Sequence record: NC_048748.1
From: Escherichia phage vB_EcoS_HdH2
DNA: 64,000 bases
Direction: 5' to 3' (one strand)
Positions 7,665 to 10,999 of the stretch are shown here, in pieces. Position numbers and translations under genes: made by a program. Under the pieces are notes generated by a model. It had not been told where the DNA came from and did no database searches. It was given only the letters and a program-made list of their open reading frames with translations. Numbering within the stretch: the first letter of the stretch is position 1; the number at the start of each line of letters is the position of its first letter.

Positions 7665-7973
7665 ATGAGCGAACAGGTAAATCAAAACTATGAAGGACAC
7701 GTTGATGACCAGTCCATCATACTTTGGGAGAAGGAGGGAGAACAAGTAAGATTAACAGTATCTGAATTTCGTGGGAATCTATACATGGGTATTCGTTACT
7801 GGCTTCTTGATATTAATGATGAATGGTTTCCAACGAAATCTGGCTTCTCTTTTCCTTACACTCTAGAAACAACATCACAGCTTTTCTATGCGTTTACACA
7901 GATTCTTAGCGAATCTGAGGTTTTACATGAAGTACAGAAACGAGCTGAAGAACTCAAAGCCAAGAATGCCTAG
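7665..7973 (+). CDS. hypothetical protein
   Basis: 102-aa ORF; terminator immediately downstream. Confidence 0.6.
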   Translation: MSEQVNQNYEGHVDDQSIILWEKEGEQVRLTVSEFRGNLYMGIRYWLLDINDEWFPTKSGFSFPYTLETTSQLFYAFTQILSESEVLHEVQKRAEELKAKNA

Positions 7974-7990
7974 TTCTTGGCTTTTTCTTT
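7958..7990 (+). terminator. intrinsic terminator
   Basis: agccaagaa / ttcttggct stem followed by ttttcttt; the stop codon sits in the loop. Confidence 0.65.
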
Positions 7991-8000
7991 ATAAATGTAT

Positions 8001-8029
8001 TTGCTTTCAACTCAGTTTTGTTATATAAT
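8001..8029 (+). promoter_or_regulatory. sigma70-type early promoter
   Basis: TTGCTT, 17-bp spacer, TATAAT, then ATTTATATAAATTGATAAG box. Confidence 0.7.
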
Positions 8030-8058
8030 ATTTATATAAATTGATAAGAGGATCAATT

Positions 8059-8247
8059 ATGAAAGTAACACTTCCAAAAATTCAAGCAAAGCTAAATCTA
8101 GTATCGAATGCTAGAAATAACTATCTAGATAACTTTGGTGGAATCAACGATAAAGCGTACAAAGATGCGTGGTTGAAAGAAGCGCAAGAGTTAGCCGATC
8201 TCATTGCTCAGTATAATAAAGAACTACGGGTAGAAATGAATGACTAA
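8059..8247 (+). CDS. hypothetical small protein
   Basis: ATG 8059 after AAGAGGA; ORF track begins at an upstream TTG. Confidence 0.5.
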   Translation: MKVTLPKIQAKLNLVSNARNNYLDNFGGINDKAYKDAWLKEAQELADLIAQYNKELRVEMND

Positions 8248-9211
8248 TGTAAAAGACTTTATTAAACGCTGTCAAGAAGCATATTATCAAGGCATGTCTT
8301 TAATCTCTGATGAAGAATATGATCGCCTGGTAAAACGCTTCCCATTAGAAGAAGAGATTGGGCCTAAGGGTGATATTCCACATCTGTACCGTATGTATTC
8401 TTTACAGAAAGTTTATTATAATCGTGGAGATAAACCTCCGTTTAACCCATTAGGTCAGGTAGAAACTGATAAGTTAGATGGTTGTGCGATTTCTCTGCTA
8501 TATATTAATGGCGAATTTGTTCAAGCACTAACTCGTGGTAATGGTATTCTAGGAAATGATGTCACAAGCAACGTAAGATTGCTGAACATCCCCAAAAAGA
8601 TTTCCCAAAAAGTACCTACTCAAATCACTGGTGAAGTTCTAATTACAAAAGAAGTAGAAAATAAACGTAACTTTGCCTCTGGTGCTATTAACCTCAAAGA
8701 TAGCGATGATTTCGTACAACGTATCGGGGAAGGTGGTTTAATCTTCGTTGCATATGGTATCCAGTGTTCTGCTGAATCTGTAGGTATTACAGAAGCGTAT
8801 TTAAAAGATATGCTTTGGCTGGAGAATGAGAACTTCTTAACAGTTGTTAATGTGCGTTCCTTCTTTAAATGGATTCCTACTGATGGTAAAGTTGTTCGTA
8901 TTAATGACAACAACAAATTCTTCCGAGAAGGCTGGACTAATAAATTCCCTCGTGGAGCATTCGCTATTAAAGAGGATGAAGAAGGCGAGATTACAACTCT
9001 TACTAAAGTTGAGTGGCAGGTAGGGGCTTCTGGTAAAGTAACTCCAGTTGGTTATTTCGAACCGGTAATTATTGATGATGCTACGATTGTTAAAGCGACT
9101 CTCAATAACGTTGATTATATTAACTCTCTCGATCTAGAGATCGGTTGCCAGATTCGAGTGATTCGTGCTGGTGGTGTAATCCCGTGCATAGTAGAGCGAG
9201 TATACGATTAA
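8240..9211 (+). CDS. ligA: NAD-dependent DNA ligase, subunit A (adenylation/OB part)
   Basis: KxDG adenylation motif in ETDKLDGCAISLLY; 323 aa, equivalent to the N-terminal two-thirds of bacterial LigA. Confidence 0.85.
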   Translation: MTNVKDFIKRCQEAYYQGMSLISDEEYDRLVKRFPLEEEIGPKGDIPHLYRMYSLQKVYYNRGDKPPFNPLGQVETDKLDGCAISLLYINGEFVQALTRGNGILGNDVTSNVRLLNIPKKISQKVPTQITGEVLITKEVENKRNFASGAINLKDSDDFVQRIGEGGLIFVAYGIQCSAESVGITEAYLKDMLWLENENFLTVVNVRSFFKWIPTDGKVVRINDNNKFFREGWTNKFPRGAFAIKEDEEGEITTLTKVEWQVGASGKVTPVGYFEPVIIDDATIVKATLNNVDYINSLDLEIGCQIRVIRAGGVIPCIVERVYD

Positions 9212-9261
9212 TACATAACCCTTTGCTACCCATCTACCATATCGGAATTATAAAGTGGTTA

Positions 9262-9290
9262 TTGACATTTTCGCCGCTTAGGTATATACT
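9262..9290 (+). promoter_or_regulatory. sigma70-type promoter between the ligase halves
   Basis: TTGACA, 17-bp spacer, TATACT. Confidence 0.6.
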
Positions 9291-9354
9291 ATTATCATTC
9301 AGTTGAGGGATAGAAAGTTATGGCGAGGGTAAGCAAAGTTAATTAAAATTGTAG

Positions 9355-9383
9355 TTGCTAAATGCTTAAATACTTGCTATAAT
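9355..9383 (+). promoter_or_regulatory. sigma70-type early promoter
   Basis: TTGCTA, 17-bp spacer, TATAAT, then ATTTATATAAATTGATAAGGAAG. Confidence 0.7.
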
Positions 9384-9413
9384 ATTTATATAAATTGATA
9401 AGGAAGAAATTTG

Positions 9414-10190
9414 ATGAAAATCGAAATTCCAACACAATGTCCCTCTTGTGGTTCTAAGCTAGATCTTGTCAACGGACAATTATTCTGTCGTAATAAGTCC
9501 AACTGTCCAGCGCAATCAAGTAAGTTAATTGAGAACTTCTGTACAAAAATGAAGTTAAAGGGCTTTGGCCCGAAAACTATTGAGAAGCTGGAGCTGACGA
9601 AGATTTCAGAACTATTTTACCTAACCGAAGAAGATTTGGTTAGAGCCGTGGGTAGCAAGGTTGCCGCTAAGTTAATTAGCGAATTAAATACTAAAGTTCG
9701 CGGAGACATTGACTTTGGTTCAGTTCTCGGTTCTTTAGGAATCCCTCTAATTGGAGAGGTTGCAGCAAAGAAATTATCCCAAAATTGCACTAGCTTTCAA
9801 GATGTGAGAGCTGACGGCAAGGCTGGAGAAAACTATAAAGCCTGGCTAAATTCCCCACAAGGCAAGGATGTTATCGAATTACCGTGGAAATTCTCAAATG
9901 GTATTAAGGGTGCTAAAGCTGAGGTCATCACTGATGGTCTAGTAGCCCAACCAAACGGAATAACGGTATGTATTACCGGATCTTTGCAAGATTTTGCAAA
10001 TCGAACGGATGCAACAAACTATTTAGAAGGTCTAGGATATACGGTTAAGAAATCCGTTACTAAAGACGTCAAATACCTAATCTGTGAGGATGAATCGAAG
10101 CGTTCTTCCTCATCTTATAAGAAAGCCGAAACGAATGGGATAGAAATCCTGTCGATTAAAGAACTATTGGAGAAAAATAATAATGTCTAA
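9414..10190 (+). CDS. ligB: NAD-dependent DNA ligase, subunit B (Zn-finger/HhH/BRCT part)
   Basis: Cys4 zinc finger CPSCGSKL...CRNKSNCPAQ typical of LigA C-terminal half; 259 aa. Confidence 0.85.
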   Translation: MKIEIPTQCPSCGSKLDLVNGQLFCRNKSNCPAQSSKLIENFCTKMKLKGFGPKTIEKLELTKISELFYLTEEDLVRAVGSKVAAKLISELNTKVRGDIDFGSVLGSLGIPLIGEVAAKKLSQNCTSFQDVRADGKAGENYKAWLNSPQGKDVIELPWKFSNGIKGAKAEVITDGLVAQPNGITVCITGSLQDFANRTDATNYLEGLGYTVKKSVTKDVKYLICEDESKRSSSSYKKAETNGIEILSIKELLEKNNNV

Positions 10191-10950
10191 ACTGAACTGG
10201 AACGTAGAAGGTGTAACCGAGTCTCTGAAAGCAAAAGCCACTGCTCTGGGTGTTGATGTAATCTCTCAAGAACAAGTAGCTGCTATCGCCGCTGAACTGG
10301 CTGCTGAAACTGGCAAAGACGTTACCGCTCGCTCTGTTGGCTCTAAGCTGCGTAAAGAAGGTTTCGAAGTACAGAAAGCTAACGAAGTACAGAAATCCCC
10401 GTGGACTCCTGAGCAGGAAGCTGAACTGGTTGATTTCCTGAACGCTCATGCTGGTCAGTATACTTATGCTGAAATCGCTGCTGCTGTAGCTGGTGGTCAG
10501 TTCGGTGCTAAACAGGTACAGGGTAAGATCCTGAGTCTGGAAATGACCGCTTCTGTTAAACCAACTGAAAAAGCTGCTGCTGTTCGTTCCTTCACTCCTG
10601 ATGAAGAAACTGATTTTGTTAATCAGGTTGTTGCTGGGGCTACTATTGAAGCTATCGCTGCTCACTTCGGTCGTAATATCAAACAGATCCGTGGTAAAGC
10701 TCTGAGTCTGCTCCGTGAAGGTCGTATCGCTGCTATGCCGGTACAGGAAACTTCAAGTGCTAAAACTCGTGAAGATCTGCTAGAAGGTCTGGATCTGGTT
10801 AACATGACCGTTGCTGAGATCGCTGAGAAAACTGGTAAGTCTGAGCGTGGTGTTAAATCTATGCTGTCTCGTCGTGGTCTGGTTGCTAAGGACTATGATG
10901 GTGCCGCTAAGCGTGCTAAACTGGATGCAAAAGCTGCGGCTGCTGAATAA
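10183..10950 (+). CDS. hypothetical abundant early protein with four tandem ~55-aa HTH-like repeats
   Basis: 255 aa; four modules of pattern (I/V)AxxxGxxxxxxxxKLxxxG; strongly host-optimal codon usage unlike neighbours. Confidence 0.8.
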   Translation: MSKLNWNVEGVTESLKAKATALGVDVISQEQVAAIAAELAAETGKDVTARSVGSKLRKEGFEVQKANEVQKSPWTPEQEAELVDFLNAHAGQYTYAEIAAAVAGGQFGAKQVQGKILSLEMTASVKPTEKAAAVRSFTPDEETDFVNQVVAGATIEAIAAHFGRNIKQIRGKALSLLREGRIAAMPVQETSSAKTREDLLEGLDLVNMTVAEIAEKTGKSERGVKSMLSRRGLVAKDYDGAAKRAKLDAKAAAAE

Positions 10951-10967: not shown

Positions 10968-10999
10968 AAGGGGAGGGGGCTATGCTCCTTCCCCTTTTT
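10968..10999 (+). terminator. intrinsic terminator
   Basis: aaggggaggg / ccttcccctt stem followed by ttttt. Confidence 0.7.

Follow-up and report, generated by a model that had tools for sequence, protein, structure and literature searches.

RESULTS

Two neighboring genes encode the parts of one NAD+-dependent DNA ligase

The window, the whole 64,000-nucleotide stretch analyzed here, comes from Escherichia phage vB_EcoS_HdH2 (NC_048748.1), a T5-like phage of the Demerecviridae. It contains two genes, ligA and ligB, with the features listed in Table 1.

Table 1. Features in and around the ligase locus (positions in the window).
Feature	Position	Strand	Details
Terminator-like hairpin	7956..7984	+	Closes upstream unit (T5 ORF106 homologue); T5 rho-independent terminator at matching place
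Putative promoter of the ligA unit	8001..8029	+	TTGCTT-17-TATAAT; equivalent to "putative early promoter T5P35"
25-nt module, copy 1	8024..8048	+	TATAATATTTATATAAATTGATAAG; -10 hexamer and initial transcribed region; T5 "repeat b"
Accessory 62-aa ORF	8059..8247	+	phrog_8267 (unknown function); between promoter and ligA
ligA, ligase subunit A	8240..9211	+	323 aa; short domain Ia, adenylation, OB fold
Variable insertion slot	9212..9261	+	Directly 3' of ligA stop; empty in window
Putative promoter P1 (= T5P36)	9262-9290	+	TTGACA-17-TATACT, 11/12; sequence match, conservation
8-codon mini-ORF	9320..9346	+	MARVSKVN*; P1 leader, 3' of GAGGGA Shine-Dalgarno-like element
Putative promoter P2 (= T5P37)	9355-9383	+	TTGCTA-17-TATAAT, TG extension (TGcTATAAT), 10/12
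25-nt module, copy 2	9378..9402	+	TATAATATTTATATAAATTGATAAG; identical -10/leader module
ligB, ligase subunit B	9414..10190	+	258 aa; Cys4 Zn finger, HhH, BRCT
D5 homologue	10183..10950	+	DNA-binding protein/late-transcription factor
Strong terminator-like hairpin	10968..10996	+	13 pairs and T run; closes ligB-D5 unit

The ligA product matches the Pfam families DNA_ligase_aden (PF01653; 83.5 bits, cut-off 27, E = 2e-23) and DNA_ligase_OB (PF03120; 78.4 bits, cut-off 32.9, E = 4e-22). The OB fold lies C-terminal to the adenylation domain and aligns with residues 323 to 390 of E. coli LigA. The lysine of the KxDG motif is K78, in K78-L-D-G. This residue is unchanged in 32 homologues, down to 47% identity, as are D80, G81, E132, D215, G216, K244, and R309; an arginine (R220) stands where E. 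coli LigA has K290. At the N terminus, LigA has AYYqg...iSDEEYDrL, a probable counterpart of the NAD+-type domain Ia motif of bacterial LigA (Y15, Y16, D24, Y27, D28), in a segment whose HMMER alignment is weak (2.7 bits). Across the 32 homologues, Y15 and Y27 never vary and Y16 and D28 hardly do. The NMN-binding residues of domain Ia in E. coli LigA are Y22, H23, D32, Y35, and D36, and H23 is replaced by tyrosine (Y16) in the phage protein. The domain Ia/N-terminal region is about 37 residues shorter than that of E. coli LigA (K78 versus K115). An AF2 model of LigA had a pLDDT of 88.8 and TM scores of 0.82 to 0.84 against chains A of PDB entries 9hu3 and 9i5i, which are described below.

In the LigB alignment, four cysteines (C9, C12, C25, and C31) fall on the Zn finger of the T. 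filiformis and E. coli enzymes. The BRCT match (PF00533) scores 35.1 bits, above the Pfam cut-off of 21.3. The HHH_2 match, at 25.1 bits, is slightly below the curated cut-off of 27, and this region aligns with LigA residues 402 to 530. A Shine-Dalgarno sequence, AAGGAAG, precedes ligB at 9400-9406, and a TTG at 9411 is an alternative start. Together the two products have the domain set and order, the catalytic motifs, and the Cys4 Zn finger of bacterial single-chain LigA (E. coli, 2OWO; T. filiformis, 1DGS). However, the bacterial enzyme is one polypeptide instead of two, and identity to it is 24 to 28%. Thus, the preliminary description was right to place an adenylation/OB half with a KLDG motif and a Zn finger/HhH/BRCT half in separate ORFs.

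The alignment to bacterial LigA that had been proposed for finding the break point gave a clear position. Residue 320 of LigA aligns with E. coli LigA residue 390, and LigB residue 3 aligns with residue 402. LigA residue 323 corresponds to about residue 393 and LigB Met1 to about residue 400, so that, measured against E. coli LigA, the LigA C terminus stops about 7 residues early and the LigB start is exactly in place. The break sits in the linker between the OB fold and the Zn finger, and no part of LigA is lost. Because the cut falls exactly within this linker, the two proteins would jointly reconstitute the complete domain set of bacterial LigA. The spacer (9212-9413), first given as 200 bp, measures 202 bp from the ligA stop to the ligB ATG. 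The two genes are in different frames and every spacer frame holds 5 to 6 stop codons. Therefore, a single-base sequencing error, whose correction would have merged the two ORFs, is excluded.

The two-gene ligase is the T5 arrangement

The same genes, order, break point, two spacer promoters, and repeat b are found in T5 (AY587007, AY543070), where the tblastn gap between ligA and ligB is 205 nt, as in the window. The T5 record AY587007 annotates dnlj1, dnlj2, promoters T5P35, T5P36, and T5P37, and copies 4 and 5 of repeat b, and T5 ligA and ligB have been cited as AAU05253 and AAU05254 (PMC3632103). T5 differs in having no counterpart of the 62-aa ORF between the upstream promoter and ligA, the stop of which overlaps the ligA ATG in the window. 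We compared this ORF with the 64-aa ORF of phage bastian as a possible relative, and the two are unrelated. Window LigA is 100% and LigB 99% identical to the proteins of a T5-like 121,750-bp IMG/VR contig (L003).

The ligase of Providencia phage vB_PreS_PR1 is an orthologous two-chain enzyme with its domains divided as in the window. Two PDB entries, 9HU3 and 9I5I (released on 2026-01-14 and 2026-02-18), bear the title [quoted passage not shown] The window proteins align with them over their full length (chain A, 339 aa, E = 6e-104; chain B, 248 aa, E = 9e-80), and the subunit boundaries of chains A and B of 9hu3 match those of window LigA and LigB. Chain B is 100% identical to a protein of vB_PreS_PR1. 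The PR1 and window ligases are only about 52 to 54% identical (52 to 53% over subunit A), and PR1 chain A exceeds window LigA by 16 residues and contains small insertions. In the literature searched we found no publication for these entries and no biochemical work on the T5 ligase.

The split is already known: the T5 GenBank record annotates the two genes together with the spacer promoters, and a heterodimer structure exists for the PR1 orthologue. The two-gene ligase of the window is the well-known T5 ligA/ligB arrangement, which the preliminary description did not recognize, and is not new. We are highly confident that the two ORFs encode the heterodimeric NAD+-dependent DNA ligase usual in T5-like phages. 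No contradictions to this identification were met, and its weak points concern expression.

The split extends across the family

In a sample of 60 records drawn from the tblastn ranking, all Demerecviridae matches were two-piece, and single-piece phage ligases were at most 30% identical. The best 120 of 1,528 LigA homologues were 310 to 337 aa long with adenylation and OB domains only, the exception being one 240-aa partial entry; close homologues, down to 46% identity, were all about 320 aa. No fused close relative was found among these 120 protein matches or the sampled phage tblastn matches. The two-gene architecture was present in 428 near-identical records (at least 80% query coverage), and about 930 records had a LigB match. 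Of 54 diverse IMG/VR loci, 46 retained the order ligA-gap-ligB-D5, the gap measuring 82 to 2,920 bp. In the other 8, ligB was not found within the 1.1 to 5 kb of sequence available 3' of ligA, and cargo ORFs fill this stretch in the four longest. The window itself has the order of T5-type loci: ligA, slot, promoter(s), ligB, D5, and helicase. This distribution indicates that the ligase was already in two pieces before the enteric, Vibrio, and environmental lineages diverged.

Conserved putative promoters precede ligB

Matches to the two spacer promoters named in the preliminary description are both present, and the T5 GenBank record labels each of their equivalents "putative early promoter." A consensus scan of the whole region found 10 promoter matches versus 8.6 expected from shuffled sequence, which is no enrichment, and thus the hexamers by themselves prove little. 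What sets P1 and P2 apart from chance is that the same pair recurs at a constant distance from ligB across relatives: in all T5-like loci, Klebsiella phage Sugarland, Pectobacterium phage My1, and the Vibrio Thalassavirus phages. A tandem pair at about -157 and -62 from ligB is present in the enteric and most Vibrio Demerecviridae loci, and its positions hold even where two or three genes separate ligA from ligB. Environmental relatives have one promoter, matching 10 to 12 of 12 positions, at about -65 to -110. Overall, a near-consensus sigma-70 promoter lies directly 5' of ligB in every related locus examined, including uncultured relatives of about 45% identity. The bases 3' of each -10 hexamer resemble ATATT, the discriminator consensus of early promoters (PMC7472727).

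The 25-nt module occurs exactly twice in the 64 kb, where chance predicts no occurrence, and the T5 counterparts of the two copies are copies 4 and 5 of repeat b. The P1 leader occurs once in the window and is not a repeated module. The mini-ORF within it is conserved only in close T5-likes and is probably nonfunctional.

D5 overlaps the ligB stop by 8 nt and thus is expected to be cotranscribed with ligB. The Sugarland annotation has a terminator at the place matching the hairpin that follows D5. A hairpin scan found no terminator-like site between ligA and ligB, the nearest being the two in Table 1. Because the promoter stays at ligB even across kilobases of cargo, ligB and D5 appear to form their own transcription unit, promoter activity being deduced from sequence and conservation.

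The stretch after ligA receives inserted genes

In relatives, the slot empty in the window is taken up by a single gene (a 64-aa ORF, GIY-YIG, or NADAR) or by cargo that is kilobases long. Between the two halves it ranges from nothing to a measured 2.9 kb, and in one IMG/VR locus (L114) more than 4.7 kb of cargo lies 3' of ligA. Comparison of these loci marks the stretch just 3' of ligA as an insertion hot spot.

It had been suggested that relatives be checked for a homing endonuclease in the spacer. A 213-aa GIY-YIG ORF (Pfam PF01541, E = 1e-5) lies exactly there, unannotated, in Salmonella phages SP3 and vB_Sen_SG_WM_RUS_R2. This gene was found in only 3 of 50,697 phage records, which represent 2 distinct phages, and it looks recently acquired. 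Over its last ~210 nt, SP3 ligA shares only about 75% identity with the ligA tails of all other T5-likes, and the rest of the gene has 0 to 8 mismatches per 60 nt. The divergent tail has the typical appearance of a homing flank. A T5orf172-domain protein, from a family of the GIY-YIG clan, lies between ligA and ligB in environmental locus L110 (23.9 bits; cut-off 20) and, with a weak match, in L105. No nuclease domains were found in the slot genes of Vibrio phages, Proteus phages, or bastian. One of the intervening Vibrio genes is DprA-like and the others have no known function; the bastian 64-aa ORF had no Pfam or PHROG match.

DISCUSSION

In the proposed working of this enzyme, subunit A would be the catalytic core, with a shortened NMN-binding domain Ia, a nucleotidyltransferase domain adenylated on K78, and the OB fold. 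In subunit B, the Cys4 Zn finger, HhH, and BRCT would be the modules that clamp the DNA and serve in recruitment. The A-B heterodimer has been seen structurally for the PR1 orthologue, from which we infer that window LigA and LigB encircle nicked DNA as a noncovalent complex. For expression, ligA would be transcribed from its upstream promoter. With no terminator-like site after ligA, some read-through into ligB is likely. P1 and P2 would start additional early transcripts over ligB and the translationally coupled D5, ending at the hairpin after D5, and through these transcripts ligB and D5 would receive more transcription input than ligA. Sequence and conservation suggest both the read-through and this A:B:D5 stoichiometry. 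The main role of the tandem promoters is probably to provide D5, an abundant DNA-binding protein. The ~50 bp from the ligA stop to P1 would be a site of recombination and insertion, occupied in other phages by accessory or selfish genes.

The preliminary description offered two explanations of the locus. The first, a two-subunit ligase in which ligB has promoters of its own, is supported by the family-wide split, the PR1 heterodimer, and the promoter directly 5' of ligB in every related locus examined. The second, the scar of an excised mobile element, is unsupported for the window, since promoters and leaders fill nearly all of the 202 bp and, apart from these, the spacer contains only the mini-ORF, with no endonuclease gene or remnant.

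A wider version of the second explanation concerns how the split arose. A single-chain ligA may have been cut when a promoter-bearing mobile gene, a free-standing homing endonuclease or some other, inserted at the OB/Zn finger linker; most lineages would later have lost this gene and kept the promoter-bearing spacer as an ancient scar. The GIY-YIG ORF immediately 3' of the ligA stop in SP3 and vB_Sen_SG_WM_RUS_R2, the homing-type divergence of the SP3 ligA tail, the T5orf172-domain proteins, and the highly variable slot content all point this way. There is also a precedent. Friedrich et al. are said to have described in 2007 a ribonucleotide reductase gene in pieces, nrdA-a/mobE/nrdA-b, in Aeromonas phage Aeh1. 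As there, an essential phage DNA-metabolism enzyme is specified by two genes and would reassemble noncovalently, and an endonuclease gene lies in the gap in the two Salmonella phages. However, the gap of the window and of nearly all relatives holds promoters and no endonuclease, and the Aeh1 split is in one phage, whereas the ligase split is a fixed trait of an entire virus family. Moreover, the GIY-YIG gene is rare and apparently recent, whereas the split is older than the separation of the lineages. The Vibrio, Proteus, and bastian slot genes lack nuclease domains, the window spacer has no ORF remnant, and no fused close relative was found as a "before" state. We therefore regard this origin as unlikely. 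Equally doubtful is the broader suggestion that selfish nuclease genes have been landing at the ligA/ligB junction since ancient times and still do so, with the split and the ligB promoters descending from a homing-endonuclease cassette; the SP3 enzyme, putatively targeting the 3' end of ligA, would be its living example. No link between the T5 ligase split and a homing endonuclease appeared in the literature reached by our searches.

It is exceedingly improbable that the two ORFs reflect sequencing or assembly error or the remnants of a pseudogenized ligase. A normally single gene does show as two ORFs, and nothing else favors this explanation: beyond the differing frames and the spacer stops, the 428 near-identical and about 930 LigB-matching records show equal architecture, the catalytic residues are invariant in the 32 homologues, and the PR1 orthologue was crystallized as an active-site-engaged complex on nicked DNA.

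We also give next to no credence to a single polypeptide restored by a split intein, by RNA splicing of a spacer intron, or by ribosomal bypass as in T4 gene 60. Split inteins reportedly rejoin split replication genes of some phages and cyanobacteria (PMC2677866). However, the ends of LigA and LigB fit the E. coli LigA junction with no extra residues, so that intein halves, of about 100 and 35 aa, could not be accommodated; Pfam finds only ligase domains; an Rfam E-value search of 7900-10300 found no intron or RNA family, its sole match being a chance snoRNA inside ligA; in relatives, unrelated genes separate the halves by up to 2.9 kb, and L114 has its longer cargo after ligA; and the PDB entries contain two separate chains.

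The heterodimeric ligase was thus correctly observed and is known, and the -10/leader repeat is likewise in the T5 GenBank annotation. Three modest side results are absent from the annotations and papers that we reached: the conservation of the ligB promoter, the insertion hot spot after ligA, and the GIY-YIG gene of the Salmonella phages. The last of these, with the divergent flank beside it, gives a testable route to how the ligase gene may have been split.

Two separate ligase genes

The preliminary description had an NAD-dependent DNA ligase split into two genes around a spacer of about 200 bp with two promoters. We found all of these: both ORFs, their Pfam domains, and both hexamer pairs. 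The first gene, ligA, carries the adenylation motif K78-L-D-G. LigB, the product of the second, starts with a four-cysteine cluster (C9, C12, C25, and C31) and has a BRCT match above the Pfam cutoff and an HhH match slightly below it. From the ligA stop to the ligB ATG the spacer is 202 bp (9212-9413). A one-base sequencing error merging the two genes, raised earlier as what would undo the split, is excluded because the ligA and ligB reading frames differ and each frame of the spacer holds 5 to 6 stop codons. The split is real and more than chance.

Features of the ligase locus in the window and contents of the slot after ligA in related phages
Feature	Position	Strand	Description
Terminator-like hairpin	7956-7984		ahead of ligA promoter
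Predicted ligA promoter	8001-8029		single promoter
TATAATATTTATATAAATTGATAAG copy 1	8024-8048		before ligA unit; T5 'repeat b' copy 4
62-aa ORF	8059-8247		phrog_8267, function unknown; between ligA promoter module and ligA; stop overlaps ligA ATG
ligA	8240..9211	+	323 aa; DNA_ligase_aden 83.5 bits, DNA_ligase_OB 78.4 bits
Slot	9212-9261		between ligA stop and P1
P1	9262-9290	+	TTGACA-17-TATACT; T5P36
Mini-ORF	9320-9346		MARVSKVN and stop; 8 codons; 9 nt behind GAGGGA Shine-Dalgarno-like element in P1 leader
P2	9355-9383	+	TTGCTA-17-TATAAT with TG extension; T5P37
TATAATATTTATATAAATTGATAAG copy 2	9378-9402		before ligB; T5 'repeat b' copy 5
ligB	9414..10190	+	258 aa counted from ATG; TTG at 9411
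D5 homologue	10183-10950		gene after ligB
Terminator-like hairpin	10968-10996		downstream of D5
Slot, Salmonella phage bastian	L001 2605-2799		64-aa ORF; no Pfam or PHROG match
Slot, Salmonella phage SP3	L024 4965-5606; MG387042 64022-64660		GIY-YIG protein, 213 aa; named 'hypothetical protein' in the deposited record
Slot, Proteus phages	L067 5953-6609 (IMGVR_UViG_2974547928)		NADAR-domain protein; PF08719, E 2e-31
Slot, Vibrio phages			DprA-like and unknown genes
Slot, related locus L105	2920-5839		2.9 kb of cargo between ligA and ligB
Slot, related locus L110	5943-7461		1.5 kb of cargo between ligA and ligB
After ligA, related locus L114	5933-9057		more than 4.7 kb of cargo, ligB yet to appear

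The two subunits hold a complete set of ligase domains

The break point was located by alignment to bacterial LigA, as had been proposed. LigA residues 253 to 320 aligned to residues 323 to 390 of E. coli LigA (2owo/4glx numbering), and therefore the C terminus of the phage protein (residue 323) corresponds to about residue 393. LigB residues 3 to 60 aligned to 402 to 463, placing Met1 at about residue 400. The cut thus falls after the OB fold and before the Zn finger, within the short linker that joins them. About 6 linker residues are missing at the junction compared with E. coli LigA, no domain is lost, and LigA and LigB jointly hold all LigA domains. The alignment leaves no room for intein fragments at the junction. 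Among 32 aligned homologues (down to 47% identity), K78, D80, G81, E132, D215, G216, K244, and R309 were invariant, and the domain Ia motif (Y15, Y16, Y27, and D28) was invariant or nearly so. This conservation is consistent with an active NAD+-type enzyme.

A PDB sequence search matched 9hu3 and 9i5i, with chain A (339 aa) at E 6e-104 and LigB matching chain B ('DNA ligase subunit B', 248 aa) at E 9e-80. Foldseek with a LigA structure model (built from 32 homologues; pLDDT 88.8) found the same entries at TM 0.82-0.84. One entry, released 2026-01-14, is titled 'PR1 phage heterodimeric DNA ligase in complex with 21-mer nicked DNA containing phage nick sequence'; the second, released 2026-02-18, holds the same PR1 complex with a random sequence instead. 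By these titles, both entries are heterodimer complexes, and the two subunits of this orthologue have therefore been seen to come together on nicked DNA. Chain B is 100% identical to the protein of Providencia phage vB_PreS_PR1/PSTCR5, from the same virus family as the window. Our literature search found no paper describing 9hu3 or 9i5i.

The split is family-wide and ancient

A tblastn search with the LigA and LigB concatenate matched 1,157 phage records. In 60 records sampled across the ranking, the Demerecviridae matches (Tequintavirus, Epseptimavirus, Sugarlandvirus, Myunavirus, Thalassavirus, and other Vibrio phages) were all in two pieces; fused single-piece ligases were at most 30% identical and mostly from jumbo phages. 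In a collection of 5.8 billion proteins, LigA had 1,528 matches at E <= 1e-10, and the best 120 (to 46% identity) were 310 to 337 aa long with adenylation and OB domains only, apart from one partial entry of 240 aa. Of 54 diverse IMG/VR loci (43-100% identity), 46 had the order ligA-gap-ligB-D5, and the gap ranged from 82 to 2920 bp. In the other 8, ligB was not found within the 1.1 to 5 kb of sequence available downstream of ligA, and the four longest of these stretches, including that of L114, were full of unrelated cargo ORFs. In Vibrio Thalassavirus phages, ligA and ligB are separated by two or three unrelated genes. ligA and ligB are truly independent genes.

Conserved promoters upstream of ligB

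P1 and P2, the two spacer promoters, are at a fixed position in 29 of 29 close T5-like loci. Klebsiella phage Sugarland, Pectobacterium phage My1, and the Vibrio phages Bennett and Wyman have the pair too, with identical hexamers and 88-96 nt from P1 to P2; in the two Vibrio phages, it adjoins ligB, not the ligA end. All distinct related loci have a near-consensus sigma-70 promoter about 55-165 nt upstream of ligB (10-12 of 12, with a 17-nt spacer). Most cultured Demerecviridae have tandem promoters at about -157 and -62 from ligB, and environmental relatives have a single one at about -65 to -110. A region-wide promoter scan gave no enrichment (10 sites versus 8.6 expected from shuffles). It is thus conservation, and not the hexamer match alone, that argues for P1 and P2 being functional. 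The sequences that follow the -10 hexamers (TATAAT-ATT and TATACT-ATT) are near ATATT, the discriminator consensus of T5 early promoters (PMC7472727).

We found no terminator-like structure between ligA and ligB in the region scan, and ligB and D5 share 8 nt at the ligB stop. The promoter ahead of ligA would drive that gene, and ligB and D5 would be fed by ligA read-through plus P1 and P2. D5 of T5 is an abundant DNA-binding protein required for late transcription, and therefore the tandem promoters plausibly serve D5 no less than ligB. The D5 homologue has a Sigma70_r4_2 match at residues 204-230 (28.6 bits versus a Pfam cutoff of 25.7) and several weaker HTH matches, in keeping with a protein annotated as a late-gene transcription factor.

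The 25-nt string TATAATATTTATATAAATTGATAAG, a -10 hexamer with about 19 nt of leader, has exactly two copies in the 64-kb window. The core promoters of the two ligase units are therefore identical, as are their 5' leaders; the -35 regions are not alike. The shared module, already annotated in T5, would favor coordinate ligA and ligB expression. As direct repeats flanking ligA, the copies could also mediate its deletion or duplication. Some T5-like phages have the 62-aa ORF behind the first copy, at 61-100% identity, and T5 and bastian lack it; it is thus a small accessory-gene insertion polymorphism.

The slot after ligA and the origin of the split

The spacer consists, in order, of about 50 bp past the ligA stop, P1, the P1 leader, and P2 with its leader. 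The preliminary description had offered, besides a two-subunit enzyme, the scar of an excised mobile element. The first reading agrees with the PR1 heterodimer and with the conserved promoter upstream of ligB; the second does not hold for the window, where these parts take up the 202 bp. Neither Sugarland and My1 nor the Vibrio phages conserve the mini-ORF. In Vibrio phages, the P1-leader motif (ATTATCA..AGTTGAGGGA) stands before ligB itself, and thus the P1 leader resembles a promoter-leader cassette from which the gene has been lost.

The stretch of about 50 bp is a variable slot across relatives. Phages 1-23 and TrudiRoth have the enlarged ligA-to-ligB span of bastian and the same 64-aa ORF. 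In bastian, this ORF shares its insertion point with the SP3 endonuclease, and the two begin alike with ATGAATAG across the ligA stop. The Proteus gene puts an NAD/ADP-ribose-related enzyme beside an NAD+-consuming ligase. In the uncultured environmental relatives L105, L110, and L114, the cargo genes comprise, among others, those for T5orf172-domain proteins, a carbamoyltransferase, and a 2OG-Fe(II) oxygenase, together with DUF6552, DUF6071, and radical-SAM-like ORFs.

A check of relatives for a homing endonuclease in the spacer had also been suggested. In rare relatives, though not in the window, mobile elements do use the gap: SP3 combines a GIY-YIG gene with a divergent flank. In SP3 and vB_Sen_SG_WM_RUS_R2, the ATG of this gene overlaps the ligA stop. 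The last ~210 nt of SP3 ligA have 14-19 mismatches per 60 nt versus the window, against 0-8 elsewhere in the gene; this tail shares only about 75% identity with the ligA tails of all other T5-like phages, and the remainder is 97-99% identical. A divergent flank is the classical homing-endonuclease signature, in which donor sequence is brought along and the element's own allele is protected. We take the SP3 protein for a probable free-standing homing endonuclease, so far undescribed, whose target would be the ligA 3' end. Such an insertion might have created the split originally, as that of mobE reportedly did for Aeh1 nrdA, and the GIY-YIG gene of two Salmonella phages, with the divergent ligA flank of SP3, would favor this. 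However, the gene is rare (3 of 50,697 phage records, representing 2 distinct phages) and looks recent, whereas the split is ancient. We therefore consider a nuclease origin unlikely.

A known locus and its predicted function

The window region matched 473 phage records at up to 97% identity (megablast). Two records are 99-100% identical to its T5-like ligase: OR847187.1 (4.8 kb, under the name 'Listeria phage LM 4-11-1') and the partial protein P0012 from a 723-bp contig of 'Enterococcus faecalis'. Both are probably contamination or mislabeled. The T5 record AY587007 annotates the ligase genes as dnlj1 and dnlj2, 'putative early promoter T5P35' ahead of the first, 'T5P36' and 'T5P37' in the spacer, and 'repeat b copy 4' and 'copy 5'. 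Thus, every element in the preliminary description was already annotated for the type phage, whose subunits are ligA (AAU05253) and ligB (AAU05254) (PMC3632103; PMC4319617). This is the textbook T5 ligA/ligB locus.

In the mechanism we propose, subunit A would self-adenylate K78 from NAD+ through its short domain Ia, and subunit B would supply the BRCT module and the Zn-finger/HhH clamp closing the ring around the nick. The complex would seal nicks between Okazaki fragments as well as the strand-specific nicks that typify T5-like genomes, with expression of LigB (and D5) raised by its own tandem early promoters. We regard the promoter upstream of ligB in all examined loci, the hot spot for insertions, and the GIY-YIG gene, which lacks an annotation, with its divergent flank as leads rather than as evidence of a new kind of system.
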